DNA from: Moniliella sp. 'wahieum'
Taxonomy: Eukaryota
Assembly (NCBI GenBank): GCA_003971905.1
Contig: RSEE01000032.1
Location: 310,001-374,000 of the forward strand
Length of the DNA stretch: 64,000 nucleotides
Reading direction: 5' to 3'
Shown: positions 1,512 to 58,512 of the stretch, in pieces
Position numbering within the stretch: position 1 is the first letter of the stretch
Layout: each line of letters begins with the position of its first letter
Notes under the pieces: model-generated
What the model saw: only the letters and a program-made list of their open reading frames with translations
Database searches by the model: none
Told to the model about the DNA's origin: nothing
Position numbers and translations under genes: made by a program

Positions 1512-2031
1512 AGCCCGGTTGGACCGCCCGTTGGGAGGCCATGGTGGTTGGTCTGAGGTGGTGGAGAGAACGAAAAAGGTGGTAGTGACAAGGGGAGTAC
1601 GCAGGCGCCGGGTAGATGATTTGCAGAATATGCCAGCGATGCCGGGGCCGACGAGGAAGGAATGACTGGTACGACACGGAAGCCAAAGGTGGGGGCGTAG
1701 GATCTAGTGACTGGAGACTATCGTCGCATGCGATCATCACAGCCCCAGAGGGGTGCAGTGAATAAAGCTGTGGGAGGAATGAGGCCTAGGCGCAGTACTC
1801 TGTTAATGAGGCCGAGGGCTGAAACCAGCGTTGGAAGGTGGAAGGTGTGATATTGAATAGCCTGAGGCCCTGAGGTCCGAGGGTTGGGGGCGTGAGGACC
1901 ACTCAGCTTGAGTGCTCAGCCTGAGTACTGGGTCTCAACGTTCAACGTACTCAGCCGCTCATCGCCACCTTCGATCTGGCAATCGGGGGGGGGGGGGGCG
2001 AGAGAAAGACAGAAGGGGTGCGGGTTGAACA

Positions 2032-2052
2032 TACTGAGTACTGAGTACTGAG
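2032..2052. repeat. Heptamer array (TACTGAG)x3 = AGTACT+G
   Basis: Directly visible. Confidence 0.9.
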
Positions 2053-2707
2053 TCTGAGTACGCGAGTACGGAACATGGAACGCGTTGAATGTTGGCGTTG
2101 TGAGCTCGCCGGTCGCCATGCTCGATGCTTGCTCCCTCTCACACATCATGCATCACACCACTTGGAGTGTCAAAACACACACTTCGAGTGTTTGATGAAG
2201 GCGAGGCCTGAGGATGCGGAAGAGCTGAGGCTGAGGGCAGCTGCTGGGGCGGCAGGGCGGGGGAGCTGGCGATGGAGGAGGGAGTACTGCCGTTCTCTTG
2301 AGCGCCGAGCCTCGCACGTCACATAGATATCGGATGGGCCGACGCATTGTGATGCAGATGGGCTGGCATGTGGCAGGGGGAGCGACAAGGCGAGGAGCCG
2401 GCAGTCACTAAAACACTAGTCATTAGTCACTGAGCACTGACACGTGGTGTGAATTGTGACGGTCACAAAAAAGCGAGCGCTGAGCGCCTGCTCTACCATT
2501 GTGCATTCCGCGTGTAGTCACTGTAGCAGGGATTGAAGATTGGGCCTGCACATGTCTGCGATTTTGGTGTCACTTGCTGTCACATGTCACAGGCTGCACG
2601 TCACATGCATGTCACAGTTGATGCATGATTTCTGATGCGGGATGCATGATACTTGGTGCTTGCACTTCAAATTTCAACTTGACCACGTCCAATTAAAACT
2701 GCGATCG

Positions 2708-2796
2708 TCGATCATCGATCATCGATCATCGAGATTGGTGCATGTTGTGATATGTGTGTATGAGTAATGATGATCGATGATCGATGATCGATGATC
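2708..2796. repeat. Two mutually inverted heptamer arrays, (TCGATCA)x3 and (TGATCGA)x3
   Basis: Directly visible at 2708-2731 and 2771-2796. Confidence 0.9.
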
Positions 2797-3695
2797 AAAG
2801 AATCCGATTATCGCGATTAAATCGCTGGCATTTCCTCGCAGTGCGCCTTATGCCAGCCGGTGCCTGTGCCTGGGCAGCGAAGCTGATAGCCCTCCCCGTG
2901 CCGGTTCCAAGGCCCACGCCTTGCCGTCGGTATGTCCCGCCGAGTTGCCGCTGCCTCGGGCCGTAAGCAGTTGCTCCGGTTGCTCCCCACAGCGCCTGTG
3001 TCTGCTGCTGCGTGCTACTGCGTGCTTCTGCTCGGGCCTGGCCAAGTACTATCCCGATGAGATCGATGATCGATGAATAAAAGCAGTGGGATACAGCCAA
3101 CACACCCCTCTGATAATGCACTCATCCTCCGATCTTCCCATTCCCCCTTCCGCCAGTGTCGCAGGGCGTCGCTGTAAGAACGCCGTTAACAATAGAGCTT
3201 CTTGTTACATCGTTATGAGTGACTGAGCGTTGTTACATGTTATCCGCCACCCAAAGCCTACGCACGGTATGCGTCTCTACAATTATCGATTATCGTGTAC
3301 GAAGCCTGATGCGTGCACAGGGAGAAGATTTCGCTCGGGCTGAGCGCTGAGGCTCAGCCGCTCACCGGCGCTCACCACACGCTTTCCCTCTCATCGATCT
3401 CATCTGGTTAATATAGCGTCGCCAGCCGCTCAGGACATCAGCATGGTTTGGCTTCCGCCACATGCCCTCCCCCAATCGCTCACATTCCACTTGCTCAAAA
3501 GAGGAGAGAGACGATAGGCTGTCATCTCATTTCTCTGATTGCGCTTTCTAATATCAGGCCTCAGGTGTCGATATCTCCCCTGTGGCCCCTTTGGTGATGA
3601 TGCGTGGTTCCCTTCGTCCCTTCATAACAGAGGGACACAACCTATCGTGCAACTATATCCCTGTTAGACTGTGATCCTGCCGCTGCTCTTATCCC

Positions 3696-3769
3696 GGCTC
3701 GATAGCGTAGTGGTAACGCCTCCCTGGCCAATAGGCAATGACATGCCGGTTCGAATCCTATTCGAGCCT
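3696..3769 (+). pseudogene. tRNA-like element / pseudo-tRNA of uncertain identity
   Basis: Perfect acceptor stem GGCTCGA/TCGAGCC, D arm GCGT-AGTGGTA-ACGC and B box GGTTCGAATCC are present. The T stem (GCCGG/CCTAT) and the anticodon arm are mispaired. Confidence 0.7.
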
Positions 3770-3879
3770 CTCTTTCCTCAATGTTTCCCCGGGCTGTGCC
3801 TTCCCACAATCCATTCAACATTGGTGAGAAGTTTTGAAGTGCAACTCCTGCCGAAGCGGTGTACCATGTATTACATGGA

Positions 3880-4900
3880 CTGATGCAGCACACACGCTTC
3901 CAATTTTACAGACTTTTGCCCACATATCGATGTTAGGTGACCCGAAAAGGGTGGGAAGTCTGCGAGGTAGTGGATGCAGCCTCTCTCTATTAGTGTTCGT
4001 CAATGATCTCGATGATCCGTACTCATTAATCAACGCGAATTCCCTAAGTGACCGGTAGAATATCTCAGTCGCCGTATAATGGTGCAAGCCGGAATGGACT
4101 TGGGGTTTCAACATATTGCTCTTGACACGCCTGGAACAGGGAGCGGAGTGCAGTAGACGCCGTCGGTATCCATCACTCCGTGTAGACTTTTCCATAATGA
4201 GGCAACTCGACTGGAGTTTTGTCCTAGAACCCGAAGCCAGTCCAATGTCCGTCAAGTTGAAGTAGCCCGAGGCGTCGAACGAGGAACCGGCTTGAGGCTG
4301 GGGGGAAAATGCCCCAGCACATGCAGCTCATGGACCGCAACAAACATCTGCGTTCCATAGAAGTGGGCATGGTGCTCGCGTTGCAAGTCGGACTTCTGCA
4401 GAAGGTATCGAAACCGCGTCAGGGACATATTACTCCGTGGCGAGACACATAATCTCCTGGTCATGGAAGGCGTGCATGATTTCACTAAGCCTACGGGGTA
4501 CGCGTGGCAGTGAGGATGTCGCGTTCAGTGAAGACGAGGCGCGCTCCATCCATTGACCATGCCGTTTTGGTTAGTCTCCTGTTAAGCGCTCATATTTTTC
4601 CTGACTTTACACGCAAGAGAACGACGTCGCCATACCTGGCTTGTCCCACTTGCGTGATGGTGTGGAACGGTGGGAGACACAGAGCTTGGTCAGGAGCTTC
4701 CGGAGCATTGTCCCTTCTGGTCCTCGGCATGAACGCGGCTATCTCTCTTGCACCTCTTGCTGAAACGAGCATTTGAGGGTGTGGTTCAAATTGGGAAGCG
4801 CGACTCATGAGCCTTCAATGCAGGCGGACAGGTATACTATTAGCAGTAGAGCGAATCGTAGTAGTAATTGCCATGAGCAGGTTGGCTTCGCACTTGACAT
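3880..4900 (-). pseudogene. DBF2: Decayed Dbf2/Sid2-type NDR (AGC) protein kinase
   Basis: Collinear relics across several frames: YYYDSL, MLRKLLTKL, FHTITQVGQARYG, ERDILTATRTP, EHHAHFYGTQMFVAVHELHVLG, PPSLKP (normally HRDLKP), LTDIGLASG (normally LTDFGLASG) and FPPFSG. It has in-frame stops and catalytic substitutions, not only indels. Confidence 0.85.
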
Positions 4901-5518
4901 TGACTTGGCAGGCAACCTGAGTCTCCCAAGGGGACAAAGCTCGCCCGTCTTCTACGACTGCCAAGAGCGCTGGTTGTCCTCCTGCTGAGAGCAGTGGTGG
5001 CAGTATATGGGTGCATTTTCGTGGGGGCGATCACTGCCTGACCTGTGTCCTGTGGGGATGATTCTCCACCCGCCTGTTGCGGCAGCGGGGCGGGACTGTG
5101 TGTGAGGAACTTGGTTGCCGGGGCTGTTTTCTGCAAAACAAGTAGGTATCTGTGCGTCCATCAGGATGTGGCGAAGAGGCACAGCTCATGGATCATCAGC
5201 CCCACCAACGTGGGTAGTGGATTTTAATCCAGTGGCGCCTTAGGCCTTAATATTGAAAGCTGACAGGCCCCAGGGATTTCGATTTAGCGTGAGCGGCTTT
5301 TAAACATTGAAATAAGCTGACCCCCGTGGAAATTGCAAGAGCGCATGACTCGGCACACTGCCCCCGTTCTAGCGCGTCCCATCTCAACAGCGAGAGCATC
5401 ACTCAACATTCCCGGCCGCAGCAAAAGTCAGGAGCAGCGTCCCACACCTCCCCGTTGTTTTCTGAACCATCTCTCCTGCTACAGCCCACCACCAACCACC
5501 ACCAGCATCACCACCATT

Positions 5519-6501
5519 ATGGCAGACACCGCCACCCCACAAGCGACGAGAAAGAGTACTGCACCTGTGCGCCGGGTGCAACCGGCGGGACGGCGGGTGC
5601 GCCCCTCCCTGGCCCCGGCCCCGGCGTCGCTGTATGCCCCACTCGCCTGCCAATCTCTGGGTCGCGTATGGAGGAGGAAGAAGAGCTGGCAATTCGCCCC
5701 GTTCCTCTGGATTTTGGTTCGCTCTTTGACCAAATGGACCGATTTCTAGTCCATTTCAAAGCGGCCGTGAGCAGCACCTGTTCTCGTGCCGAGGCGGAAC
5801 GGGAGGCGCACGAGACCCAGCTGGCGTTAACGCGGGACGAAGTACGAGCGGCTGAGGGGGAGGTGACAGATGCAAAGGAGGCTCAGTCTGCACTGTGGGA
5901 AACGATCAGTGCTCAAAAAGCAGCCGACGCCGAGGAGCGTGACACGCTCGCTCGCCTCCGTGCCACCCAGGCCAGCTTGAGCTCCAAGGCTGATGATTTG
6001 CGCGCACAGCTGGCAGCGGTCACGACCCAAACCAGTAGGAAACGGACACATCTCGAGATGGTACGCGATACCATTCATCTCCAGCGGTCCAAAACACCTT
6101 GGGAACATCAACGTCTCCAAGACCTGCTTGGCATCGAGATCCAGCCTACGAAACACTCTTGTACGTCCACTCGTTGTTCCTGGTGTATTGGTACTGACCA
6201 CGCTGCAGCCCAACTCAAAATCATTTTCTACCTTCTCAATCCCGACGATTTTTACTCGCAATCGACTTGCCTCCTCGACCTCGGCGGCAAAGGGAAGCCG
6301 TACAGCGTACTCTCCACTCATCCACCCCTGCCTGGGGGTACGATTCATGCACTGGTGCAGCAGATGAACCGCACGCGCGACCCATGGTCTTTCATCAAGG
6401 CCATGAGGCACGAGTTCCGACAACGGGCTCTGGCGCCTCCAAACGACGGCGTGGGATCCAGGCGTGATGCTTGCCGTTCCGGGGGAGCTGGGGGGAGCTA
6501 G
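5519..6501 (+). CDS. SPC25: Kinetochore protein Spc25 (Ndc80 complex)
   Basis: Long coiled coil followed by an RWD-like Spc25 domain (LGIEI..LKIIFYLLNPDD..HPPLP..LVQQMNRTRDPWSFIKAMRHEF). 48-nt intron at 6161-6208; one indel near the 5' end. Confidence 0.8.
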
Positions 6502-7830: not shown

Positions 7831-7972
7831 CTTATACCCATTCGTCAGGAGTCCTATTGAGGTATGCGTTTGCATTGATACATGATGTCCCTGCTAAGGT
7901 TTATCATTAACATCATGATGGCACCCTATGATACTCAAGTGGGAAGGGTTGGCCATGCAATAATAATGCAGA

Positions 7973-9441
7973 TCATTTTTCAAACTGGTGTGTGCGACTT
8001 GCCCACTCCAATATCTTACGCTCCAGACCAGGTTTGGGGCCGTATTTAGCCCTACAAGCAGTCACCAACTCTGCGGGGGTAGACACCCCTTTGTTGCGCA
8101 GAAGTAGGGTACACTCACGGTCTGAAGGCAACACGTACTCGTTTGTGTCTGGCGACTTTTCCCTGAGGCTCAGCCCATCGGCCAAAGAGAAGTCCAAGCG
8201 TGGGATGTTAATGTCAGGACGGAAAAACCGTTGGTCCACCCTTTCTTCGTCCACAGCATCAATATTTCCGGGTTCCCATCCGGCTCGTCCAGTCTTCCGC
8301 TTGCCCTCTGCATCCTTCTCGAGGACATGAGTCACGCCTGTGTAGAAGTCACGCTCCCCACGGGCCAGACGGCAAAATCCAGTAGCACGGCGCATGTCGC
8401 GCTCGTAGCTCGCCTCAAGCGATGGCAGTGGCTCTCCCATATGCCGATGGGTCACCACAAGTGATCGGGGGCTCTTGCTGTGAAGCACCGCCAGTGTCTT
8501 ACTGGCCCAGAGGGAAATGTCGTCCCACCCCTCGTTTTCGAGACGAGGTTCAAGTATACGCCGAGTGTCCGAACCGGGGCGCTGTAGTTCCTCCAGGCTT
8601 TGGAGAATGTCTTGCATGCGGTACTGGGGGTAGGTGAGGGAGAAACATGATCCAAGGCCACCCTACGTGAACCAAAGAAGGGGCTGCTTGCCAGGTCTGT
8701 AGCCGGTGCCGGATCAGTGCTCCACTCAAGCAGAAGCTTGTCCACTAGCGCAGTGTTCTGCGGCTGGGCCGCCGTCACCTGCGCAACCACAGCTGCCACT
8801 GCTGATGCAGGGACAAAGTGCGTCGCCAAGCCAAGGTAATAGAGCTCCCACCCGGCTAGCCGGTGCCCTGTTAGGGCGAGGTACAGCCCAACCCCCCCGT
8901 CCAGCTGGGCGAGGGTGCGAGCGACCCCGACATCGGGAAAGAAGCCAATGCCGGTCTCAGGCATAGCCCAAAGCGTGTTTTCCGTTACCACCCGTATCTG
9001 AAGTGGGGAAGATAGCCCTACACCGCCGCCCATCACGATCCCATCTAAGATGGCCAACGCGACGTGGTGGCTGTCGTTTGCGATCCGAGCCAGGAGGTAG
9101 TCGACCTCATACTCTTTCTGGAAAAAGGCCAAGCTGGCTTGTTGGACCTCTGGGTCGGTGCTCGCCGCAGCACGGACAACAGCAAGGACATCCCCGCCAG
9201 CGCAGAAAGCGCGGCCTTCGTGGGTGAGTAGAAGGGTGCGGCCGCGTTCCTTGAGAAAGGCTTGAAGTCTTGCAGTGAGCTGAGTAACCATGGGCAAGTT
9301 CAGTGCATTAAGTGCCTCGGGGCGGGTGAGGGTGAGTACGTGCACGCTTCCTTCCATGGGGGGTGACGAGCATCGGTGAGAGATGTGCGCTCAGTTGGGC
9401 AACGCGTGCGCTGCCGGGGCGAGGGCAGTGGGCTTGGACAT
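7973..9441 (-). CDS. EHD3: 3-hydroxyisobutyryl-CoA hydrolase (crotonase family, mitochondrial)
   Basis: LTRPEALNAL, RAFCAGGDV, FFQKEY, DGIVMGGGVG, WAMPETGIGFFPDVG, LALTG, KSPRSL and DFYTGV; split by indels. Confidence 0.92.
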
Positions 9442-9813
9442 AGACAGGAGGTGGAGTAGAAGAGAGGGCAGGCCACCCTCCCCGAATGGATTGAGATGAG
9501 TTGGTTGGGATCATTGATCATTGATTGCCCGGGCTGACTCGGGATTATCGATTAGCGGGTACCGGCAATCGATAATCGGTAACCGGTTGACGGCAGTTCC
9601 CAATATCAACCAGATCCATCCATCATGCATCACATCACACATCAAATATCATGCGATCATCACCCATCCTACCCCACACCCCACTTTGTTTGGGCCTGTG
9701 AGGGAACCGAAAAAAGCTGCGGCACTAACCCTATTTGTTTACAGGCGCCCTTGTCAATTGCTATGGTTTTGCTCGCTTGGTGCCCGAGACTTCCCCCCAT
9801 CCAAGTAACCAAC

Positions 9814-10579
9814 ATGGCTGACGCAGCTCCTCGTGGACGTGGTGGTTTTGGCCGTGACCGTGGTGGCCGTGGCCGTCGTGGCCGTCGTGGTGCCCGTGGC
9901 GGCGAGAAGGAGGAATGGGTGCCCGTCACCTCCGTTGGCCGCCTCGTCAAGGACGGCAAGATCAAGTCGATCGAGGAGATCTACCTCTTTTCCCTCCCCA
10001 TCAAAGAGTACCAGGTGGTGGACCTGCTCCTGCCCAAGCTCAAGGATGAGGTGATGAAGATCCACCCTGTGCAGAAGCAGACCCGTGCTGGTCAGCGTAC
10101 CCGTTTTAAGGCGTTCGTTGCCGTTGGTGACTCGGACGGTCACTTGGGCCTTGGTGTCAAGTGCGCCAAGGAGGTTGCCACCGCCATCCGCGCTGCCCAT
10201 CAATCTGGCTAAGCTCTCCGTTATTCCGGTTCGCCGTGGGTACTGGGGTGCTGCTCTTGGTGAGCCCCACACGGTCCCCATGAAGGTGAGCGGTAAGACT
10301 GCCTCGGTCATGTGCCGTCTCGTTCCCGCCCCCCGCGGTACGGGCATTGTTGCCGCTCCTGCGTCGAAGCGCATGCTTCAGCTTGCCGGTGTGACCGACT
10401 GCTACACCCAGTCTTCGGGCCAGACGGCCCATGGCAACTTTATCAAGGCCACCTTCGAGGCTGTGTCCAAGACGTACGGTTTCCTCACGCCCAACCTGTG
10501 GAACAACATCCCCCCTCCTCCTACGCCCTTCGTGGAGTACTCTGCTCACCTCGCAAAGGCGGCCAAAAAGGCGCTCTAA
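9814..10579 (+). CDS. RPS2: 40S ribosomal protein S2 (uS5)
   Basis: RGG-rich N-terminus, [31 protein letters not shown] and [12 protein letters not shown]; strong codon bias; indel near 10197. Confidence 0.98.
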
Positions 10580-11220: not shown

Positions 11221-11683
11221 GTGAGCTGCTAAGAGTTCGTAGTTCGGACCTGCACCAACCTCCGAATGCTTTCACTTGGGCGGCCCCAATACCCCTCTGC
11301 TTAGTTTCCTTTCTTCTACATCCAGTGATTGATCAAGGTCAAGTGACCTCCTCATCTTGATGGTTATGTTGTGGCAATCAAAGCAGTTTATAAGCGCCTG
11401 GCTCATGGGATCACATGCACGACAGGATCGGTCATTAATTGGGGCTTGTAACTTGCTGGTAGCCAGGACTTGCTCATGTAGCTCAAGCGGCGTAAGTGCC
11501 GTGACGGGTGACGGGTGATGGGTGACGTGAAAGATTCAATTCCGGCCCGGTCGGCTCGCCCTTTGTGGGCCTTGTGTCTCACAAAATCAGGCTAGCACGC
11601 AAGCGAGTAGCCTCTGTTCATTTCCTCCGTTCTAAGTTAAGCCTCAGCCTGTGGTCACCTTGGAGGCATGCAGAACGCCACCA

Positions 11684-12688
11684 ATGATGACCACCGCTAC
11701 TCCCCTTCGCTCCACGGGGAGCATAATGTACCCTCAAAAGCAGCCAGACGAGCCGCTCCGATATCCAACTCGCCTTCAAGTTGCCCTGACCACTCTGATC
11801 CACGGCCCTGGCGACCCGTGGCCTACCCCCCAAACCTGCAGGGCGACACGCCCCACCGACATCGACGTTGGCCTCGGCCTCGGTTTCGGCATCGGCAGAG
11901 CCAAAGGAAGAGGTGTCCTCCCCCGACATGGCTCTCGTTGCGAGCACAGGACCGGCGCGCTGATCGTCATTCTGGAGCAGGCAAGTTTGGAGCTATACCA
12001 GGTCCCTGTTTCCCCCAACGCCCGCGGCTTCCGCGACAAACGAAGGCAAGTTGGCGTGCTGAGTTGCGACGACCACCAGAGTGCGTTGGCCAAGATGGGC
12101 GGGACATTGCCGAGGCACGCCCGGACATTACGCACCAATGTCTGTTTGTCTCTGTTGGATTCGCCACTGAACAAGGCAGGGCGACTGCAGGTCTACATCC
12201 ACACCGCCCAGGGTGTCTGGATCGAGGTCAATCCTCGTGTCCGAATCCCACGGACGTTCAAGCGCTTCAGCGGACTCATGGTGCAGCTTCTTTCGCGCAA
12301 AAAGATTACGAGCGAGAAGGGCGATCGACTTCTCACTGTGATTTCTCCCCTCTCACGTGCTTTTCTGCAGGCACGCACAAAGTCACCCTTACCCACCATG
12401 CCCCTCTGCAACGCTTGTCGACATGGATCCCCCGCGTGCCTGCAGACCATTCTCTGGCAATCTTCATTGGCGCGATGGCCCACGAACGGGATGACTTTGA
12501 GGACTGGAGGTGGACGAAAAGTTGTCCGTTTCAAAGTATGCTTTGAGCGCGGCTGTGCTTGCAGTAAGTAAGGTACGTTTTCCCTTTGGATGTTGGACTA
12601 GAAATACTGGAGGGCTGAGAACTTGGCTGCTGACGCCATGTTTGGTGGTAGTTTACTTGCGCGATCGAAGATGCTGGGAATCATGTGA
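11684..12688 (+). CDS. EMG1: 18S rRNA pseudouridine methyltransferase Nep1/Emg1 (start codon uncertain)
   Basis: [66 protein letters not shown] and SKYALSA; 3' intron. Confidence 0.95.
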
Positions 12689-17131: not shown

Positions 17132-17893
17132 GTTGCAGTCGTGACACTAGCTGCGTCGGAGATGGTAAGCGGAGAGACTTGCTGGGCTGGGTGGGGTTCC
17201 ACTTGGGCCAGGACGTCTCTTCGTCCTTTGCGGATTGCCATGTCCCCGTGGGAGCGGCTATCATCCATCTCTAGCACTTGTTTGTCGTTTCGTTCAGTAT
17301 ACCAGGCGCCTTGGTAACTCGGCTTCAAGTTTTACCTGCCCTTGTTGCATTTGCCCTTGAATTCCATATGCCTGTGGGCTTTCCTCGGCCCAGCCCATGC
17401 ATGCTTCTGCTGATGTACCGCGTTTTGTACATCGTCCGCCTGCACGTTCATCGACACCGTTTCATACCTTATGGCCAGGATTGAGTTGAGTACTGCTTTG
17501 CTTGACCCGCGTCGTAGCAGGTCGTAGCCTTGGGCGATAGTCAACAGCAGGCAGAGCTGCTGAAGCGGTTGGGGGTAGGCCTGCAGGCCAAATGAAATGT
17601 TCCTGCCTATCCTATTTTCACAATCTGTTGTGCCCGCCAGGCTGGGGTGGATGATCGATGATCAATGATCGATGATGCCGGTTGCAGGCTATGGATGGAT
17701 GGATGGATGGGTGGGGGATGGCGGAGCGCAGCAGCGCGTAATTAGTCGATGAGCACTCGTGACCGAAGCGGCGCAATCTACCGCCGGGTGGTAACGCCCA
17801 AGTAGCAGCCGCTGCCACCCATCGTCCATCCAGCGCCTGCGCTGCGCCTGTCTCCCGCCACCCCCTGGCTCAGCCGCCCCACACGCGGCCATC

Positions 17894-20039: not shown

Positions 20040-21969
20040 ACGTGTGAACCCACCAGCAGCCGCGCACCCACCCATTCAAAGCATACCATATCGCATACCG
20101 TAGCAATCTTTTACCTTGTCTGGAAAGTATGTGGAAGAGGTGGAGCGCGAACATAGACATCTAAAACCATAGAGGGGCCATGCCTCGTATATTATGCTGT
20201 TGGATGAGACCATGACCTTGCATCCGCCGCCAGGGCTACAGAAAGCCAGCCATAATAGGCAATGGGGCGCCAACTTCGCCAACTTTTTTTCACGATGATC
20301 AGTGGCCGAATGGCCTGCCCTATGGACGCGCAGATTGTCGCCTAGTATACATTGCACTTGACACCAACAGCCCAGAGATGTTGCCCAGGCATGGCAGTTA
20401 ATATCTGGACAATGGGACATTTCTATCCCCACGGCGGACGTGCGTTCGATGCGACCACCGGTTATGCGGGTATTCCGCAATATCGATTACCGATCGATTA
20501 TCCCTCTAAACGGAAGACGATAGGACCGTCCAAGTCGCGAGCAAGGTAGTGTCGTTCCTTCTCCCCAGCATCAACGTCATCAACCCCATTCGCGACGACG
20601 TGGTTGCGTTGCACAAGTACTCAGTAACTCAGTACGGAACACAGGACGTTACTCATTGCAGTTAATGCAATTATTGAGTAGCCCAGTGGCTTCGGCAGCC
20701 CGGCGAATCATTGATCGATCTATCCTCGCTGAAACTATCCTAGCTGAAATTTCACTCACCTGGGCCAAGTGGAGGTCGGTCTGAAGTCTAAAGGCGAATA
20801 TTGACCTTGGGCCAATTTTTCTTTGCCGTCAAAACACAGTACACACATGCCTTTCGACGGCATAACACACCACCACCACCACCACCACCGCCTTCACCAT
20901 GATTGGCTGTTACCCTGCGTCAGTCAACGGCAATATTTTGATAACTTTTTAAGGTGCGTTGCTTATACTGGTGCTTGCTACTGGACACAAGGAGCATAAG
21001 GATGTTCAAACTTTTTACCTACGTTCACCTAGGCCTCGCGCCATTGAGGACTCTTTTTCGTTCTCGTTTCACTGAATTCTCCGTGTCGTGCATGTCGTGG
21101 GCTATTTGCATCCAGCCATGTTTGCATAACAAAATGCTGACCCACTTTGTGACACATCCAGGTTCGACTTGCATACACAGGTACAGTGTCGATCGTTTCG
21201 TCTTTTAAGGTAAGCCTGCTCTACTTCATCCTCATGTTTTCCAATGTATTTTTTTTCAAACTCTGCTTTCGGCGCTTATAGTGCTTGCTTAGAGTGGTGT
21301 CCCACCACGTCTTGGGAACCGTTTCACTCACTGTTCCCTTCTCGTTGGGAAGGTCTTTGGTGTAATACTCATTGTCCTGTTCTTGGCTCTGGCTTTCATC
21401 TCCAAGCGGTGCCATAAGCACCGATATTGATGCCTCGAACAGACGAATAGACTGCTCATTGCTCGCCTCCAACTACAACGCCACTTTATTCTTGACCCCA
21501 TGTAGGATTTCGAGCGTGTTCGCCTGCTTGATGGTGCTTCCTCTACCGCCCCTCTGCTCGACCAGCAAGCGTACCACCGACAGGTGATCACGTTGGTTCA
21601 TTCGGGGCGGGTGCTTCCGAATTGGCGACTGTGGCGTGTTTTTCGCTATGGATGTGTTTGCATGACATCCATCTCCCTGATGCTGGCAAAACGGGATGAT
21701 TATCTGCGGATGAAGATTTTAGATGACTGGTCTCATGGCGTTTCCTCGAGCCGTGTACCCGGGTACGCACCTCCCATGGAGAGACAGAAAAGGGAGTGCC
21801 CTTCGCTATTCGCTAAGAGGTAGGGAGGAACATGTGGCATGCCGCACAAGAGATGAAGTACTATGCAAGAGACACGCGCACCGAGGGCTAATCGGTGCGT
21901 AGGATGCGGAGCAGGCTATACAGGTAGCACAGCGGATGATCGTAGTTGTACATTGTCTGGGCTTGATCG

Positions 21970-30819: not shown

Positions 30820-30848
30820 GTTACGCGTTACGCGTTACGCGTCACGCG
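30820..30848. repeat. Heptamer array (TTACGCG)x3-4 = ACGCGT+T
   Basis: Directly visible. Confidence 0.9.
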
Positions 30849-44204: not shown

Positions 44205-45005
44205 GTTTGTCGTGGCGTTCGCCTGCGGCTTGGTTCTTGCGCGATGGGGGGGGGAGATGGGAGATGGAGACGCGACGCGTCGCTAGCAGCTCAGCCCGCG
44301 CTTAAGAGCTACGCTTGAAACTGGTTGGCGACTGAGCCTCAGATTCAGATCTCAGAGTGCTGATGCGCTGATAGCTGCCTGAGGAATATGATAGCCGATC
44401 GTGCTTCGCACTGCCCCTCTGCGGAGGTGCCTGCAGCCGAATCTCCATGCCCACTACCACTGCCCGTTCGCCTCACTAATTGGCTGGCATCATGCATCAT
44501 GCATCATGCCTTTGCATCATACCCTCGGCACCCGCGCAGGACGGATGGGACTGGGTTACGATCAATCATCGACGCGACTATACATCCTGAACCACCTGGA
44601 TTCTGACAGGCTCCCTCGGCACGCTTTCCTTACCACATGCCAAATGATTTTCGACTGGGGGCACCAGTGCTACGTGCGGCATGAATGGTGAATACGAGAC
44701 TTTGGGAGCGGCCGACTGACTTTAAAGCGAATGCATATGGCATGGAAACCCCGGGAAGGAATATCGGAAGAGAAACTTACGCACGAAAACTCATTCCAGT
44801 CCATAAAGTAGCATTTTACCAATAGGGCCTAAGGAACTAACCCACAAGGTTGTTTGAGTACGTTTGAGATTCATCGATTCAGAACTAAAGACCATCCGTG
44901 CAATAGCAAAGCGACAGGCAATTGACAAAACGAGAGAGTAGGCACAAATGAGTGTGGCAAAATGGCAAAAACAAGGGGATAGAGCAAGCCAAATAGCGTA
45001 GCAAC

Positions 45006-47767: not shown

Positions 47768-49720
47768 ATGCTGACGCTCCAAGACCTAACCCCGAATGCG
47801 GTCTCTATGATGATCCGCCGGGAGCTGCCCATGCAGCCCGACAACCTTGTCGTGCAGGTGTTGAGCATCAAGGTGCTGCCCATCAGCAACTCCGATACCA
47901 CCCGCGCCCGCCTCGTGATCTCTGATGGCCACCTTCTCCCAGGCCATGATGATCTTCCCCAAAGCCCCACCCCTACCGCTCGAACAAATCCAGCGCAACA
48001 CCCTTCTCCGCATCACCCAGTACCAGACTAACCTTGTGGGCGACCATGTTATCGTCATTGTTACCAACGCCGAGAAAGTAGGCGATGCAGAGGAACGCTT
48101 TGGCGTGCCCGTCACATACCGCTCCACCGTTTCCCCTGCCTCGGCCGCACCTTCAGCACCCGAAAGCAGTTCTGCGCCCGAAAGCAGTTCTGCGCCCGAA
48201 AGCAGTTCTGCGCCCGAAAGCAAGCCAACCATCTCATCCCCCCTTGGCCGCCGCGGTGCGGCTCAATCCGGACCCCGGCATGAGGCTATCGTTCAGGTCG
48301 AGTAACTACATGTTCGGCCCACGCATAATGACGCTCGGGGGATTGACCCTGAGCGCGTTCCCGTACTGCCCCATTGAGGCGCTGTCCGCTTTTCAGCACA
48401 GGTGGATGATCCGAGCCCGTGTTACATCCAAAAGAGAAGTCAAGACCTACACCAACGCCCGTGGACCCGGCAAACTCTTCTGGGTCCACCTGCTGGACGA
48501 GACTGCCGAGATCCGGGCCATCGGCTTCAACGAGATGGTGGACATGTTCTACCACCGGCTGCAGGAGGGCAAGGTTTACTATATTGCGCGTGCCCGGGTA
48601 GCTAGCGCCAATAGACAGTTCAACACGCTGAAGAATGATTATGAGCTCACCCTCAACTTCGAAACCGAAATTGTGGAGGCCCCCGATGCTGCCTCGGTTC
48701 CCAGCATCACTTTCACTTTACTCCGCTTTCGAGGCTGCGAGATGTGGAGCCCACCCGACTTGTTGATGTGATTGGTGTGGTGCAAGATGTGGGGGAGGTG
48801 TCCGATGTCATGACTCGGTCAACCCAGAAGCTAGTTCCAAAACGCGATCTCATTCTCGTTGACCAAACCGGGATGAGCGTGCGCCTTACCCTCTGGGGCG
48901 CAACTGCAAGCAACTTCCACTCCAATGAGCCTCATCCCGTACTGGCATTCAAGCATGTTCGTGTAAGTGAATTTGACGGGCGCACGCTGAGCATGGTCAG
49001 GACCACAATCATTCACGCCAATCCGGCTATGGACGAGTATTATCAGCTCAAGGCCTGGTACGAAAGCGAGGGAGCCAAAACACAGTTCAAGTCCTACAAG
49101 GGTAGCGGGACAAGTGGGGCGGACATGAACAACCCCAATGAGCGCAAGCTGATGGCCAGGTCATCGACGAGGGGTTGGGACGGGACCAGACGGGCAAGGT
49201 GGATACCTTCTCCGTTTTGGCCACACTGAGCTGGGTCAGGAACACCAACATGTGGTATCCCGCGTGCCAGAGCGAGGGGTGCAACAAAAAGGTCACCATT
49301 GAGCCCAGTGGTGAATGGCACTGCCTCAAGTGCGACAGGACTTGGCCTGAGCCAGAATATCGCTACTGTTACTGGTGGGATAACCGACCTCAGTGGTTTT
49401 TATTTGGGTCAATGGTTTTAATGACATTGGCAAGTTCTTTATGGGGAAGACCGCCAACGAACTGCATAAAGAATTTCCCGATGAAGATGACCTCAAAGAG
49501 TATGTCATGTCGAAGGGGCGGGATGTACGTGTTTTCCATCAAGGCTAAGTGGGAGTATTCAACGTACGTATCCCTCTTCCTTGCTTGCCCAATGATACTG
49601 ATACTGCATTCCGCAGGATACGGGCCGTGTCCGCTACACCATCCACAGCGTCAAGAAGGCCGACTGGGTGCCGGAGGCAGAGTTGCTCGCCAAGGCGATT
49701 GAGGATCTGTCGACAACGTA
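47768..49720 (+). CDS. RFA1: Replication protein A large subunit (RPA70/Rfa1)
   Basis: RLVISDG, PIEALS..WMIRARVTSK, GKLF..LLDET.EIRA.GFN, VDVIGVV, LTLWG, C4 zinc motif YPAC...CNKKV...CLKC; 3' intron near 49565-49616. Confidence 0.93.
48159..48221 (+). repeat. 18-bp coding tandem repeat (CCCGAAAGCAGTTCTGCG)x3.5 encoding APESSS in the RPA1 linker
   Basis: Exact repeats, directly visible. Confidence 0.95.
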
Positions 49721-50236: not shown

Positions 50237-51255
50237 CTACAAACCCAGCTCCCCCTCCCCCCGGGCGGGGCCGACACTCAGGTCCATAATAGCTGAGGCG
50301 GGCGTACTGGATATCGATGACGGGGATGCCTGGGGGGCCTGCTGACCGTCCACCGATGACTGCATGTTCAACGGGATAGCGTGGTCAGATGGCACCGCGC
50401 TGGGATGACTCAAAAGAATGGCTTGGCCCGGCACCTCACTTGGCACGACCTGGAACTGCGGCTGTCTCGCACGGGAGCTGGGTGGGAAACGAGGTAGGGT
50501 CGTATCAGGAGCGAGTGGTCCTGTAGCACCAATAGCGTCCAAACGGGTGCGATTATCTTCGGTAGCGGTCTCCGTCAAGTTCGCCGCACCCCCATTAGTA
50601 TGGCTAAGAGGGGGACTGGGCAGGGCTGTGTTGGTCCTCAAAAACCGGAACGGACGCGGAGAACGTGTGGATGACCAGGCACCTCTGTTGGGAAAGGGGG
50701 TCAGTTCTCTCTGACTTGTAACCTGAAGGGGGCGATCAACTGGAACTTGGTCATGTGTGTGGCTGTCACCAGAAGGGATGAGGTTGACGTGAACAAGGCT
50801 TGGATTGGTGCGTCTTTTGGGGGAAGGAAGGCCGATGTTCTGACGTAGGTCAGGGCCAGATTGGACAGGGGCCGGAGGGGAGGGGATGAAACCACTGTTG
50901 GGCTGAGAGATGAATGGGCCCATACGCTGGGGCGCGAAGGCGCTAGCCCTGCTATTAGTGCTGAATGAGAAGGGCCCCTGGTTCCCCGGATCAAAGCCCA
51001 ACCCCTTCATCAGAGGGCTGCCTTGAGTATCTTCTGCGGCAGTGACAGTAGAGCGCGGGGGTGAACGCGTTTGCGCAGTTGTCACTGGCGCCTCCACGAA
51101 GACGAGCAGTTGGGTCGGATACGCAACTGGAGACGTATGTCGTACTCCGTCTCATACGGCAAGGTTGGGACATGTGTTGACACATGGAGCGTGATCCCGC
51201 CATCGCGATCATCGCGATTCTCCATTAAGGGCACAGGTGGGGGTGGAGGGGACAT
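50237..51255 (-). CDS. Hypothetical low-complexity protein, possibly degenerating
   Basis: 286-aa Pro/Ser/Thr-rich ORF with a frameshifted upstream ATG exon. The same frame continues through stops toward about 49850. Confidence 0.45.
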
Positions 51256-52733: not shown

Positions 52734-55727
52734 TTACTCATCGTCGTCCACCTCGAGACGGGTGGCGAACGAGTAGATGTCGGGCTCACCCTCCTCCGAC
52801 TTCTCGTGAACGACAGTGAGACGCTGCAAGTTGGTGAAGAAGTCTTCCAGCACCTCGTTCTTGGTCGAGCGAACGCGGCGACCCATACGGTTGATCCACT
52901 CGAGCTTGTTCAGCACATAGTACACCACCGTGATAATGATAGTCACACCAATCGAGTAGGCCCAAACGCGCACAACGGTAACCACATCCGTCCAGTTGTG
53001 CTTGTTGTGGCGCAAACGGGGCGAGTGGATGTAGCGGGCAATGGGGCCACCGAGCCAGCCAAACAGACAGAAGATAGTGGCAAGGGCGTCAACACCAAGA
53101 ATGGCACCCACCAGCTCCCACGAAGGGATGGTGTTCTCGTCCGAAGTACCCGATCCAAGACGGGTAACAAAGATAAGCCAGTTCTCCGTAAGCGAAACCT
53201 CAAGGAAGAGAATAAGCTGCAGGTTACCGAAGTTCTGGACAATACCACCGTCGGGAAGGAACAGGGTGCCACGGACGATCCAGGTGCCACCAGCAAGCAA
53301 GGCACCGAGGATGGTCGAGATGACCCAAATCTTGGGCAATTGCCACTCGACAGGCTCCTTGGCAGGGGGGCGTTGTCGTACGCAATGGCAATGGTCGCCA
53401 AGTCGGCAAAGAGAGCAATGAAGACAATCAGGTCGGCGCGGATCACCTCGTCACGAATGCAGATCGACAGAAGGAGGTAGATCTCGAGGTGGAGACACAG
53501 CGAAATACGGTACTGGATGTAAGCCTTCATGTGGTGGAAAATCTGGCGGGCAACCTTGATCGAGGTGATGATGGTCGAGAGACCTCGTCCAGGAACACGA
53601 CGTCGGCAGCCGAGCGGGCAGCGTCCGAGGCACCCTCCACAGCAATACCACAGTCAGCCTTCTTGAGCGAGGGAGCGTCGTTGACACCGTCACCCGTCAT
53701 GGCAACCAAGTGACCACGGTGCTGGAGCATCTCGACGACCTGGTACTTGTGCTCGGGGAACACCTCAGCGAAACCGTCGGCAGCCTCAATGAAGTCGTGA
53801 ATGGCCGAACCAGCAAGACCGCCCGAGCCAATCAGGCGCTGCGAGTCGTACACCTTGGTGCCGAGCGAAAGCATCTTGCAAGTCTCCTTGGCAATAGCGA
53901 CAGCGTCACCCGTAAGCATCTTGACAGCGATACCAAGGTTCTGGGCCTCGGCAATGGTAGCAGCCGTGTCCGAGCGAGGAGGGTCAAACATGGGCAGGAG
54001 ACCAAGGAGGTGCCACTCGCCATCGTTGATGGCGACACCGAGCGAACGGAAACCACGCGAGGCAAAGTCACCGGAAACCTTGCGGTACTGGGCGGCCTGC
54101 TCAGGGTCAGGCTGGCAGAGCTTAAGAATAGCGTTGGGGGCACCCTTGGCGGCAATGTACTGCTTGCCGTCCTTCTCGACCTCGGCAGTGATACGCTTCG
54201 ACACGGGGTCGAAGGGAGTGAAGCGGTGGGTGATCCAGCCCGAGGCGAGCTCCTCCTGGGCACCGGGGTAGTCCTTCAGAGTCGAGATGGTAACCTTGTC
54301 AATGGGGTCAAGAGACTGAACGTTGTGCGACGAAGCGAGGGCGGCAACGGCCATCATGTTTAACGTCAACACCCTCCGAGGTGAAGGGCTCGTGAATCGA
54401 AAGCTTGTTGGCTGTAAGGGTACCAGTCTTGTCCGAGCAGAGCACATCGACACCGGCAAGCGACTCAATGGCAGTAAGCTTTTGCACAATGGCTTGGCGC
54501 TTGGCAAGGTAAGCGGCACCAACAGCCATGGTGGTGGTGGTAACGCAAGGAAGACCGACGGGCACACCGACAACGAGGAAGATCAGGGTGTAGGTGAGCA
54601 AGTTGTTCTCCTTGGGCTCAGCAATACCGGTGTGGCGGAAGAAGCCCGAAATCCAGAAGCCAACAACGAATGCCATGACAAGAACCAAAAGAGCGGTACC
54701 GATCGAGTCCATGACCTTTTGGAAGTGACCCTGCGACTCACCGCCGAGCACAAGGGCAGCAGTGCGGCCGACGAAGGTCTGCTTGGCAATGTCCGTGCAG
54801 AGCACGAAACCCTTCCCGCGCTTGCAGCCAGTGGTGTAGAAGACAGTGTCACCGATGTGCTTGTCAACGGCAAGCGACTCGCCAGTAATGGCCGACTGGT
54901 CGCAGGCAATGATAGCAGGGCCTTTGTCGACACCTTCGTCATCGTCCTCACCGTGGGCAGTGGCACGAGCCTTCTCGAGAATAGCAGCAGCCTGGGATCC
55001 GTCCTTGTCGGCGTAGTCGGCAAGAAGACGGCCATCGCAAGGAACGGTCTGACCGTCCTGGACAATAACAATGTCACCGGGGACGACTTCACGGGCCTCA
55101 ATTTCAACCTCCTGACCATTGCGGACAACGAAAGCGCGAAGAGCAATACCAGCCTTCAGCTGGGCGACAATGTCACCAGCTTGCTTCTCTTGGTACCAAC
55201 CGACGAAAGCGTTAAGGGCCAGAATACCACAAATGACACCAAGATCAATCCAGTCACGCAGACACCGGCGAGAGCAGCGGCCAACTCCATCACATAAAGA
55301 ATAGGACCCTTGAAGAAACCGGGAACTTGAGGAAGAGGTTCTCCGAGGGAGCCTCAAGCTCGTTGTAGCCGAACTGAGCGCGGCGGGTTTGGACGTCCGA
55401 GTCGGACACACCCTGCTGCATCGAGGTCTCGAGCCTAGAGAAAATTTGCATCGGTTAACATGAATTCCGGCACGAGCAGAGAAAGGGAGACACGTACCAG
55501 CTAGAAGGAACCTTGGGAGCGACCGTCTCCTGCTCACCATCCTTGTTGACGCGAATCTCGCGCACCTTCCAGGGACGGAGGATTTCGCGCTTGCGCACGA
55601 TCTGGATGTCGTTGTTTTCGCCCTCGTCGGCATTGGCAGCCTTCTGGGCCTTGATGAAGTCAAGAAGCGAGGCGTACTCGTCGTTAACTTGGCTCCCGTA
55701 GGAGCCCTTGGGGTGCTCGTCAGACAT
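52734..55727 (-). CDS. PMA1: Plasma membrane H+-ATPase (P3A)
   Basis: DQSAITGESLAV, GVPVGLP, CSDKTGTLT, PFDPVSKR, KGAP, FDPPR, MLTGD, MTGDGVNDAP, FADLAT and LTENWLIF; intron near 55436-55496. Confidence 0.98.
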
Positions 55728-57554
55728 GGTCGGAATGCCTGCGGAGCGGGGTGGGTGGGAGGCGGGCGGGGAGCGCGGCCGGACGGCAGGGGCGCGGGCG
55801 GTGGTGGTGGGGGGGCGGGGGGTGGTCGGGGTGGGGGGAGAGAGACGTCCGTCCAAATCTGGCCGGAGACGGTGGGCTTATAAGCACGCCAACATTCTTG
55901 CCTTGAGCAACCACATCCGTTGTTTGGGTGGGCACGGCGTCAGTGTGCCAGTGAGTGGATGAGCGCCGCCGGCGTCGCGTGGGGGCTAGTGCGAGGGGAC
56001 CAGCAACTGCCCCCGTGCGGTCAGCGTTGGATCAGGCACGGAAGCGTCTTCGCAATTGCCGACGAACTCTACTGCACGTTCGTTCGATCGGCCTGCAGCT
56101 GGGCGCCAGTGTTGTACGGCCCGTGCGCTTCTACGCGGCAGCCTAACAAGACGCACGCGGCTGTCCTTCGGGGAGGTCATCGGGTCACAGGTTACTAGTT
56201 ACTAGTTGCTAGTGACTGGTGACTTGCATGGACTGGCTACTAGTCCCGCCCGTCCTGGGTTACCGGTTACTAGGCGACCGGTGAGCTCCCCAACCGCTGC
56301 AGACGGGAACACTCCCTCTTATTTTCTTCTTGGGGGCATGGGTTTCACATGCGTCGCATGATGTGCATGATGCATGACATCCATGACAAGTCACATGCGC
56401 ATCACGCTTTCTTGAATCCATCGTGTCATGCATAATTGCGTCGCATCGAAATCGACCATCTATAGTCAACTTGACATCAACCCAATTGATCGTCAAAGCG
56501 TCCCACGTATCTTCAAGAACTTCAATAGCTTCAATATTCAATTCTCAGAGATCTGAGATAGTCTCAGGCCGAGGGTCAGATCTCAGAGCCTAATCAAATC
56601 TGTGTGACCTGGTATGTGACGCATGTGCCAGCGATGCATGATGGGTGACCGGTGACGCGTAGAATCATACTGCAGGAGCTACAAGTTAGAGACTTTGAAT
56701 GTCCCTGTCATGCATCATGTTATGCTGGCAGCTAAGGCCTAGCAGAATGCCTAAATTTAAGATCGAACATCGATGATCCAGTATCCTCTTCTTTGCGCCC
56801 TGCGCCAATCCTGTGCCCCTGTTCCATATGCCCTAAATGTGATGCAACAGGCCCTCGAGGCCAACATCGATCATCGAGCCGTCGGCGCGTCAGGCCCATC
56901 ATCGACATCATCAGGCCCTCAGGCCTGCCTCAGGGTCATGCAGGTCATGCATCATGAGCTGCACTATTCGCTCTCAGACTGCGACGTCCCCATCATGCAT
57001 CATGTATGGTGCCACACTGGCTTTCTCTCTCACTGATATTGCGTTTTCAGAGAATGAGCGCGAGCTCGCTAAGCGCTAAGCGCTAAGGCCGGAAGGAGAG
57101 GATGGGCGGCAGGGTGCGCATGCGGATACGGTATGCTAGCCCGGACTTGCCGGACTTGCCCGGACTTGTCCATGAGCGGGTTTGGTCCGAATCGGTTCTC
57201 CGAACGGAGGGCCAATTATTAATTGGCCCTCGGCCTGAGGCCTGATTAATGATTGGCCTGATACACATTGCGGCCGGTGCAGCTCTGCAGCCTTGTGCCG
57301 CCCTCTGCCGCATTCCGCCCCTCCACCTCTGTTCCTACAGAGACTGCACCCCGTCCCACGCAGCAGAGGGGCAGCACTCTATTTTCCCGATGGCGGGTCT
57401 CAACTGACCACTCTCCCTGCACCCATGATAACGATCACGATCATGGATAGACCAGGCGAGGATTGAATAGGATGTGTGATACGTGGTGTTCAATTGATCA
57501 TTGATCTCGTCGTTCATCGATCTCATCGAGCTCATGCATGCAATGGTTCATGCG

Positions 57555-57760
57555 TTGGTTCAACGTTGGTTCAACGTCAACTTCACGTTCAACGTTCAAC
57601 GTTCAACTAGTTGAACGTTCAGTACGTTCAACGTTCAACGTCGTCAACGTTGATTTCAACGCGCCTCCACCCTCCACCTTCAAGCTCTTCAAGCTTCAAG
57701 CTTCAAGGGTTCAAGCTTCAAGGTTCAACTGAACGACTTGAACGTTCAGCGCGTTCAGCG
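57555..57760. repeat. Degenerate heptamer arrays (TTCAACG)n and (TTCAAGC)n
   Basis: Directly visible; more than 15 units, in both orientations. Confidence 0.9.
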
Positions 57761-58512
57761 TTGGTTCGCTGGCATTCCTAAAAATGCGCTCGTAAGCTGC
57801 CCCTTCGCCGACAACATCGGATGCTGCCAAAAGGAGGCAAGCACACTTTTGGAAAGATCCGTATAACTCCCTGGCCACGTGCATAGATCACCGGTCAGGC
57901 ATCATACATCATGCACATCATGTCCCGTCCCTTTCCTCCCTGAACCCTGGGCCTGCCTCTTTTTGCCCCGCCGCAGCCAATCGCTTTTTCGGGTGCCTGG
58001 TGGTATATGGCCAAAGCGATTGTTGTAAGACGGGGGCACTGTGGATGCACAGTCGAATCTGCGGCCCAACCTGCCGTCAGAAGAATGGGAGAGCTTAACG
58101 CGCGCACGCTAATAAACAGGTTGTACGCGCTTAGCGCTTTTATAGGGGCCTAAGCCCTAAGGCCTTGTCCATGTCAGCGCTCAGCGCGAGCACGCCTAAT
58201 CAGGTTGAACGCTGCACGTGACTGCGACCTCTCCAGTGGCGAAACGGATTGGGGCCTCTGAGGCGGATGGCACTGAGAAGACGAATGTGGGTGCTAGGGC
58301 TGCCACGCGTCCGGCTGGAAATTGAAATGTGGCATTTGGCTGGGTTGAAAGTTGAAGGAGGATGGGTGTGCACGTGGCTGCCCCGGAGCTGGCGCATGGG
58401 CGCTTACGTACGCGTGCCCCCGCACCACGCGCCAGGAGGGCAATGGGGGTGGTACATGTGGACGCCGAATGTTCGACCACCCTCGATAGCCAGTCCCAGC
58501 GCCAGAAGGGTT

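Follow-up and report, generated by a model that had tools for sequence, protein, structure and literature searches.

What process would write many different 7-bp tandem repeats to one and the same geometry? This question is raised by a 64,000-nucleotide stretch of Moniliella sp. 'wahieum' (assembly GCA_003971905.1, contig RSEE01000032.1, positions 310,001 to 374,000 of the forward strand), here called the window, in the intergenic DNA of which an earlier note had described at least 11 unrelated units that each join a palindromic A-NNNN-T hexamer to one further base. The sample is this one 64-kb window, gene-dense eukaryotic DNA with a G+C content of about 57%, and all counts refer to it unless otherwise stated. 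From its sequence, the heptamer grammar looks like a by-product of break repair and not like a promoter code. The reading that we favour, and which we consider evenly poised between right and wrong, is that the arrays are accumulated excision footprints of a cut-and-paste element that would insert in promoters and duplicate there a 7-bp target with T-N-A in its middle, the footprints then growing by re-insertion or slippage.

The heptamer rule

Arrays were located with Tandem Repeats Finder and an exact-repeat script. The 7-bp arrays listed by the earlier note are real, every one being found at, or a few bases from, the position given there. Perfect period-7 runs of at least 15 nt numbered 18, and 12 of these have a rotation that consists of a palindromic hexamer plus one base. 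The A-NNNN-T geometry held for 11 of the 12, the exception being TGATCA plus T at position 9509. The rule is more simply worded as T-N-A followed by a 4-bp palindrome. At lag 7, TCA paired with TCA occurred 3.6-fold and TGA paired with TGA 3.5-fold over expectation, and the four bases between the triplets were palindromic in 31 of 55 TCA pairs, 24 of 56 TGA pairs and 9 of 11 TTA pairs, compared with 5.8% of all 4-mers. Sites with the same TNA triplet on both sides of a 4-bp palindrome numbered 67, compared with 2.0 in dinucleotide shuffles (no more than 7 in any of 100), 2.2 in a Markov-3 and 4.6 in a Markov-5 model. Control flanks stayed near expectation (ANT, 3 against 2.3; CNG, 5 against 6.6; GNC, 4 against 7.1), and hexamer-N-hexamer repeats were found 12 times in the A class and not once in the other three classes. 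An excess of the ANNNNT+N class over other palindrome-plus-one heptamers is thus present when measured against dinucleotide shuffles (67 against about 2), and the other classes show none.

Palindromes of 2, 4, 6 and 8 bp between TNA triplets were observed 7, 67, 4 and 1 times, with 6.9, 2.1, 0.5 and 0.05 expected, and only period 7 is strongly enriched; this constancy of length points to an enzyme whose stagger is fixed. All 16 four-base palindromes serve as cores in the 77 sites listed, 15 of them between identical TNA triplets, and the TATA core occurs a single time, at a site with mixed centres. The centre base is repeated directly, with 31 TCA/TCA and 24 TGA/TGA pairs, and only 4 pairs in the list of 77 sites mix TCA and TGA. 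The arrays had been described as carrying two alternating dyad axes; because the centre base repeats directly (55 pairs with the same C or G vs 4 mixed), they have no true dyad symmetry at the T-N-A axis.

Several simple origins were tried and rejected on these properties. The earlier argument that simple slippage would not keep one geometry with different cores was borne out by the arbitrary cores under one rule, and a slippage microsatellite of any unit does not account for a unit restricted to TNA plus palindrome or for the majority of loci, which have two copies and one-sided flanks. An array of transcription-factor sites with a conserved recognition sequence is likewise rejected, T-N-A alone being constant. 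A general palindrome-making process found no echo in the even palindromes, which numbered 45, 15, 2 and 3 for arms of 5, 6, 7 and at least 8 nt, against 49.5, 12.1, 3.3 and 1.2 expected; the sole palindrome excess, odd palindromes with 6-nt arms, is the arrays themselves. An inverted-repeat search returned only the arrays and some weak pairs, and solo TNA-centred 7-mer palindromes were only mildly enriched (202 against about 177 expected in total); 45 of the 202 fall in divergent gaps, which make up 11% of the window, although this is a weak test. Mixed TCA/TGA centres would be expected from a fold-back, and also from a symmetric dimer of a protein bound to a 10-bp palindrome, whereas the centres repeat directly. 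The template-switch or fold-back process proposed in the earlier note is therefore not supported in its general form: the cores do arise by inverted copying of neighbouring bases, but palindromes are not generally raised and the centre base is not inverted.

Distribution between genes

The gene map was built from open reading frames (ORFs) and Pfam hits (those of 128 aa or longer numbered 159, of which 150 were scanned) and is free of intron models, so that it is partial and the gap classes are approximate. Elements were counted at 68 loci. Divergent gaps (7.2 kb) held 64 same-centre lag-7 pairs of TCA or TGA against 7.9 expected and 51 sites (7.05 per kb), with 10.9% of their length covered by perfect elements. 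Tandem gaps (3.9 kb) held 13 pairs against 2.6 expected, 5 sites and 2.0% coverage; convergent gaps (4.8 kb) held 3 pairs against 2.4, no site and 0.9% coverage; and the coding sequence of Pfam-supported ORFs (17.3 kb) held 7 pairs against 7.2, no site and 0.0% coverage. The claims that arrays cluster 5' of genes and are missing from convergent gaps are both upheld in the window, with 51 divergent and 5 tandem sites and not one TNA-palindrome-TNA site in 4.8 kb of convergent DNA; density is far from equal among the classes. The convergent gap at 20037-21972 has no period-7 element but does contain spaced variants (at 20035, 20569 and 20619), two of which were counted as loci and make up the 0.9% convergent coverage.

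An assembly or base-calling artefact has next to no probability. A homopolymer of G14 to G15 at 1985-1999, upstream of the KRE6-like gene, hints at long-read origin and is a possible assembly trouble spot. An artefact would, however, have to produce 68 loci with many unit sequences and decayed copies, strictly restricted to one class of gap, and we know of no base-calling errors that make structured 7-mers of this kind.

The distribution by itself could also be that of selected promoter elements, in which a lineage-specific protein, acting as a general regulatory factor or excluding nucleosomes, recognizes T(C/G)A at intervals of 7 bp and the arrays are kept for their function. The strict confinement of the elements to promoter-containing gaps agrees with such a code, as do a 1.6- to 1.9-fold enrichment of T[CG]A over expectation in divergent gaps and a hint of orientation, weak as a test, in the right halves of these gaps (TCA 9 vs TGA 1). 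However, the left halves are unbiased (11 vs 10), and the elements are spread across whole intergenic regions, at no fixed distance from the ORFs (38 to more than 2000 bp). A protein cannot require any 4-mer that happens to be palindromic, yet all 16 occur; broken cores resemble unconstrained decay of the CpG type; and the one-sided flank periodicity and reverse-complement spacers described below indicate an origin by copying, not by convergence. The earlier suggestion of a protein that reads T(G/C)A at a 7-bp period thus gained no positive support from the arbitrary cores, the positions across whole gaps and the CpG-type decay, and we regard selection for a promoter code as distinctly unlikely. 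The arrays may have been co-opted in promoters later.

Metagenomes were scanned for three copies of TCAT-SS-A (S, C or G). At least 119 loci were obtained and used as controls only, and 440 kb of DNA from these loci formed the control set. Among the 119 matches listed, flanks like those of the window were absent, the highest values coming from 1-kb contigs, and the non-palindromic core CC was the commonest (63 matches, vs 20 for the palindromic CG and 16 for GC). Element density in the 440 kb was 0.075 per kb, vs 7.05 per kb in the divergent gaps here. The low density and the preference for CC indicate that the palindrome rule is no general property of heptamer repeats.

Anatomy of the unit and its junctions

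The repeated unit is a 7-mer, NN-TNA-NN, with T-N-A exactly central and N mostly C or G. The palindrome is a product of the junction: the bases between two copies reverse-complement the end of the neighbouring copy. Runs of lag-7 identity were in excess at lengths of 5, 6 and 7 (75, 43 and 21 runs) and dropped to 3 at length 8; at the comparison lags 5, 8, 10 and 11, runs of these three lengths numbered 39-58, 9-17 and 3-12. Twelve of the 21 lag-7 runs of exactly 7 lie in classified 5' gaps, and these comprise ten TNA-centred palindromic cases, one TGATCA+T and one G run, so that nearly all exact 7-bp duplications in these gaps are of the class.

The flanks of the 48 single elements are asymmetric. 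The period continued into position -1 in 67%, -2 in 50%, +1 in 69% and +2 in 54% of them, and fell to 31%, near background, at positions -3 and +3. An extension of at least two bases was found on one side only in 33, on both sides in 5 and on neither in 10, where independence predicts about 24, 13 and 11. Since the two sides tend to exclude each other, the typical element can be written TSA-wz / z'w' / TSA-wz, that is, a 5-nt direct repeat whose copies are separated by its own last two bases in reverse complement. In this commonest form, two copied bases replace the first two bases of the other copy, and the result has period 7, an arbitrary 4-bp palindrome, a directly repeated centre base and a periodicity that reaches two bases past T-N-A on one side only.

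Spaced variants, in which a 7-mer (X7) is repeated after a spacer of d bases, were searched for, and those with TNA-centred 7-mers were scored for reverse-complement spacers. With d = 1, all 6 spacers complement the final base of X7; with d = 2, 9 of 11 reverse-complement two bases at one end of X7, either the last or the first; with d = 4, both cases (2 of 2) carry the last four bases in reverse complement; and the single case with d = 3 has no such spacer (0 of 1). The addition of 1, 2 or 4 bases gives periods of 8, 9 or 11. The same test in the 440 kb of unrelated control DNA gave 4 of 16 (d = 1), 4 of 42 (d = 2) and 0 of 4 (d = 4). Because X7 is non-symmetric in 8 of the 11 two-base cases, the palindrome was made at the junction and did not pre-exist in the target. 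Register is ambiguous in some d = 2 cases, where a full 9-mer is repeated; in the d = 2 cases at 3389 and 56897 the run is exactly 7 long. Where two TNA-centred 7-mers adjoin directly, 20 of 23 cases were symmetric, as expected if they are second-generation units.

The elements also show decay. The 128 lag-7 pairs with the same TNA had both palindrome pairs intact in 67 cases, one in 38 and none in 23, the last number equalling the chance background. The inner palindrome was intact in 67 of the approximately 87 non-background pairs, and many cores with one broken pair are a CpG-to-TpG or CpG-to-CpA change away from a palindrome.

It could be argued that these are structure-assisted microsatellites, self-complementary heptamers that form slipped hairpins or cruciforms in negatively supercoiled promoters and expand by replication slippage. 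Arrays of 3-4 units do fold as single strands (-3.5 to -7.9 kcal/mol, z -0.7 to -2.0), copy number ranges from 2 to about 11, and slippage surely operates in existing arrays. The two-copy elements, however, which are the majority, barely fold (-0.7 to -2.2 kcal/mol), and units of the types C-NNNN-G, G-NNNN-C and T-NNNN-A would fold equally well but show no excess. Such folding predicts neither period 7 over 5, 9 or 11 nor the reverse-complement spacers, and the predominance of the non-palindromic CC core among the 119 metagenome matches listed speaks against it too. We consider this origin very unlikely.

A proposed excision-footprint model

On the favoured reading, a cut-and-paste transposon would insert and thereby duplicate a 7-bp target centred on T-N-A. 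At its exit, the transposase would seal both flanks as hairpins. Host nucleases would cut these open at a distance of about 2 nt from the tip, and the site would be closed by end joining with a net gain of 7 bp. For a target t1 to t7 in which t3 to t5 are T-N-A, opening of both hairpins 2 nt off the tip would leave 4-nt self-complementary 3' overhangs and 5' ends recessed by 2 nt, and the joining of an overhang to a recessed end would yield t1..t7 t7' t6' t3..t7 or its mirror image. The predicted product has period 7, an arbitrary palindromic 4-mer, the same centre base, a one-sided extension of 2 nt and 7 additional bp. Opening 3 nt off the tip would give the identical sequence, because T and A are complementary, and one end opened at the tip would give the variants of period 8, 9 and 11. 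After the first event the new T-N-A would have symmetric flanks, and the next visit would add an identical unit whichever overhang is kept; replication slippage may then also alter the copy number, and old units would be eroded by point mutation, often from CpG to TpG or CpA. Insertion into nucleosome-free, promoter-containing gaps would give the order divergent, tandem, convergent, and selection against frameshifts would account for the absence from coding sequence. Two hallmarks of such footprints were found, namely a fixed-length direct duplication at the junction (7-nt copies, central TNA, sharp period preference) and reverse-complement junction bases (spacers with d = 1, 2 and 4).

Three other footprint-like schemes were rejected. 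A 3-bp T-N-A duplication with 2+2 terminus bases, the footprint type of Tc1/mariner or PIF, predicts runs of 3, whereas runs of 3 or 4 make up only 7 of 67 sites and 38 of the 48 single elements extend by at least 2 on at least one side. A plain 7-bp duplication followed by decay would not leave the inner palindrome far better preserved than the flanks, of which only 13 of 48 singles keep at least four matches. The odd hairpin of hAT elements with an 8-bp duplication, worked through by hand, yields A-N-T centres or a complemented centre base, and neither was seen.

A number of observations weigh against the footprint reading. No candidate 7-bp TNA-centred duplication flanking inverted termini was found in the window, and none of the 150 ORFs scanned with Pfam (of 159 of at least 128 aa) matched a transposase family. 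A 7-bp duplication centred on T-N-A matches no family checked. Classical hAT elements make 8-bp duplications, whereas the unit here is 7 nt long and has its T at position 3 and its A at position 5. Their palindromes are odd (PMC5873905), whereas here X7 retains its last base and gains the complement of that base, which gives even palindromes. Excision of the MULE element Muta1 in yeast is mostly precise (PMC5499845). Of the 48 inferred targets, 24 have complementary bases at positions 2 and 6, vs about one quarter expected, which the model explains only loosely; positions 1 and 7 are complementary in 8 of 48, which is chance. The exact balance of two bases added and two lost in the main class is an assumption about end joining, and one perfect period-7 run has a non-palindromic core (TGA+CGGG; Table 1). 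One element per approximately 150 bp of divergent gap is unusually dense for footprints. About 74% of cores are intact; by a rough estimate, per-site divergence would then be about 7% and events in these gaps would be about one tenth as frequent as substitutions, a rate that would be attainable for an active element. All of this comes from a single 64-kb window.

A host nuclease, for example a domesticated transposase, could instead make 7-bp staggered, hairpin-sealed breaks at T-N-A in open promoters, the scars of end joining then accumulating with no mobile element. The structural evidence for the footprint model fits such an enzyme equally well, and the scans of the window returned neither element nor transposase. 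Nevertheless, target duplication together with hairpin ends requires two reactions, as in transposons, the first a staggered joining into the target and the second an excision by way of hairpins, and we know of no host nuclease that behaves in this way; we therefore regard this explanation as distinctly improbable. A bolder form of the transposon reading, to which we give only a small chance, is that a transposase which homes to promoters and forms hairpins, whether active or domesticated, continues to write 7-bp units into the nucleosome-free DNA of this fungal lineage, and that its scars, at least one tenth of divergent promoter DNA, were co-opted as a lineage-specific promoter architecture of tunable nucleosome-excluding arrays or palindromic factor sites.

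Comparison with known systems

Footprints with P nucleotides are textbook knowledge, and the 8-bp target consensus of classical hAT elements of the Ac/Hermes type is nTnnnnAn. Hermes and other elements favour nucleosome-free promoter DNA, and the footprints of Ascot-1 in Ascobolus reportedly carry palindromic additions. Flanking-DNA hairpins are formed by hAT, Transib, RAG and the MULE Muta1; host enzymes open them, and joining leaves footprints (PMC5499845). The Muta1 hairpin is of the even type (43+43 nt; PMC5499845). Ac/Ds footprints in Candida, yeast and plants bear P-nucleotide palindromes, with the Artemis-like Pso2 implicated in yeast, and at the centre of these palindromes stands the complement of the base next to the element (PMC5873905). 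The arrays resemble the footprints of hairpin transposons (Ac/Ds, Muta1, Transib) and V(D)J coding joints in having two fixed-length copies and inverted junction bases (PMC5499845, PMC5873905). They differ in tandem growth and in taking up a tenth of divergent-gap DNA, neither of which is described in the passages on hairpin-transposon footprints that we compared.

Target duplications of 7 bp are on record in Basidiomycota for hAT7 of rust fungi (Pucciniomycotina), which groups with Ac and Tam3, and for Kyakuja of Laccaria (Agaricomycotina) (PMC12730594). The duplication length and the basidiomycete setting are shared with the arrays, but both elements are described outside Ustilaginomycotina in passages that give neither target consensus nor footprints (PMC12730594).

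Other heptamer systems share single traits with the arrays. The insect element Galileo of the P superfamily also makes a 7-bp target duplication, with a palindromic consensus around one free base; the centre of that consensus is A-N-T, as opposed to T-N-A here, and P-type excision proceeds by long staggered cuts with no flank hairpins. Bacterial heptanucleotide repeats (cyanobacterial STRR, the heptamers of Xanthomonas) are intergenic tandem 7-mers, often arranged as hairpins, but have one or a few fixed units per genome and are not known to follow a T-N-A junction rule, whereas the rule found here admits any palindromic core. Promoter microsatellites of yeasts and animals are tandem repeats of slippage origin that are concentrated in promoters, and they lack the constraint to T-N-A plus palindrome.

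Features of the window

The arrays, elements, gaps and genes are collected in Table 1. The closest named relatives of the KRE6/SKN1-like ORF are from Ustilaginomycotina: Tilletiaria anomala comes first, with 72% identity across 67% of the query, ahead of Sporisorium, Ustilago, Tilletia and others. The window was accordingly treated as DNA of a smut-related basidiomycete.

Table 1. Gaps, arrays, elements and genes in the window (window positions; all genes from ORFs with Pfam hits)
Feature	Position	Strand	Remarks
Divergent gap KRE6-like(-)/Spc25(+)	1704-5310		19 same-centre sites, 5.3 per kb; T[CG]A 1.56x expected
Divergent gap AMP-binding(-)/beta-lactamase-like(+)	30262-31120		9 sites, 10.5 per kb
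Divergent gap PMA1-like(-)/LTA4-hydrolase-like(+)	55940-58221		21 sites, 9.2 per kb; T[CG]A 1.86x expected; densest element field
Array (TGA+GTAC)	2032-2053		22 nt, perfect period 7
Array (TCA+TCGA)	2708-2732		25 nt, perfect; inverted partner of the 2769-2796 array, 38 nt away
Array (TGA+TCGA), four units of GATGATC	2769-2796		boundaries are palindrome centres
Array (TGA+TCGA)	17650-17676		one TCAA variant (CpG to CpA); about 110 bp upstream of ORF 17763(+)
Decaying array TCA+CCGG / CCAG / CTAG / GTAG	30485-30519
Array (TTA+CGCG)	30820-30842		23 nt, perfect
Array (TCA+TGCA), repeats of CATCATG	44487-44509		23 nt, perfect
Array (TTA+CTAG)	56191-56207		followed by decayed in-phase units
Array (TAA+GCGC)	57067-57087		21 nt, perfect
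Two arrays (TCA+ACGT)	57585-57641		flank a 22-bp perfect palindrome (57598-57619)
Array (TCA+AGCT), three units of CTTCAAG	57687-57707
One-sided single TCAGG/CC/TCAGG	3554-3565		5-nt direct repeat plus 2 inverted bases
One-sided single TCAGA/TC/TCAGA	56576-56587
X7+1+X7, CCTGAGG / C / CCTGAGG	1861-1875		spacer is complement of last base
X7+1+X7, CCTCAGC / G / CCTCAGC	31096-31110
X7+1+X7, ACTCAGT / A / ACTCAGT	20619-20633		among few elements in convergent-classed gap
X7+2+X7, TCTCATC / GA / TCTCATC	3389-3404		X7 non-symmetric; lag-9 run of exactly 7
X7+2+X7, CATCATC / GA / CATCATC	56897-56912		spacer is reverse complement of last two bases; lag-9 run of exactly 7
GGTCATG / CA / GGTCATG / CA	56934-56951		period 9, two full copies, register ambiguous
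X7+4+X7, CCTCAGG / CCTG / CCTCAGG	56917-56934		spacer is reverse complement of last four bases
X7+4+X7, GTTCAAC / GTTG / GTTCAAC	57558-57575
Counter-example, perfect period-7 run TGA+CGGG	11501-11518		core non-palindromic; upstream of EMG1(+)
Counter-example to A-NNNN-T, (GATCATT)x2.4	9509-9525		TGATCA+T; divergent gap ECH(-)/RPS2(+)
KRE6-like	189-1703	-
Spc25	5311-6498	+
Bud13	to 7787	+
Enoyl-CoA hydratase (ECH)	7976-9390	-
RPS2	9583-10576	+
EMG1	11636-12568	+
Ytp1	to 17128	+
DUF676	to 20036	+
RFC	21973-23181	-
Rer1	from 23476	+
AMP-binding	28368-30261	-
Beta-lactamase-like	from 31121	+
RPA1	48082-49699	+
PMA1-like	53530-55939	-
LTA4-hydrolase-like	58222-60593	+
PPP4R2	near 62686-63462	-

Some further structures touch the arrays. 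Two arrays that carry one and the same unit in opposite orientation (2703-2732 and 2769-2796) make a 28-nt inverted repeat that is 96% complementary. A perfect odd palindrome of 25 nt, with 12-nt arms around a single T (57207-57231), directly precedes a TGA+GGCC / TGA+TTAA element in the divergent gap PMA1/LTA4H and may be a long hairpin-derived copy. A period-9 analogue lies at 51201-51218, where ATCGCGAT + C + ATCGCGAT is an 8-bp A...T palindrome repeated around a single C.

Repeats of other kinds were also seen. In the RPA1-like gene, the N-terminal ORF contains a perfect 18-bp tandem repeat of 3.6 copies, 100% identical (48159-48222), which would encode an in-frame repeat of six residues and looks recent. 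At the start of the Rer1-like ORF region, a 15-bp repeat is present in 2.6 perfect copies (23624-23662). Acidic (GAT/GAA)n triplet runs with a 15/30-bp repeat (39043-39167 and 40006-40079) fall inside ORFs with no Pfam family and probably encode a low-complexity acidic protein. A perfect even palindrome of 22 bp (40635-40656) stands in a region devoid of Pfam-supported genes, and in the segment 40865-42129, with about 70% G+C, long ORFs overlap on both strands, none of them with a Pfam hit, and several short G-rich repeats occur.

Meaning of the arrays

No description of such arrays in fungi was found in the literature, searched by words and by twelve 14-mers from the arrays, with subscription journals largely outside the coverage. 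A footprint variant of 7 bp, centred on T-N-A and with even hairpins, that came to occupy one tenth of the DNA in divergent promoters and expanded into arrays would be new. On the footprint reading, the arrays would also be a caution for studies that rely on motif finding, as a striking 'grammar' shared by promoters can be a repair scar. If the footprint reading is true, one mechanical process, transposon excision followed by hairpin repair, and not point mutation or selection, writes much of the promoter sequence of this fungus. The arrays would then be a sequence-readable record of where the element landed and with it a natural map of open chromatin, they would carry a fixed signature of how DNA hairpins are opened in the lineage, and they would provide selection with a steady supply of palindromic sites and length-variable promoter repeats.

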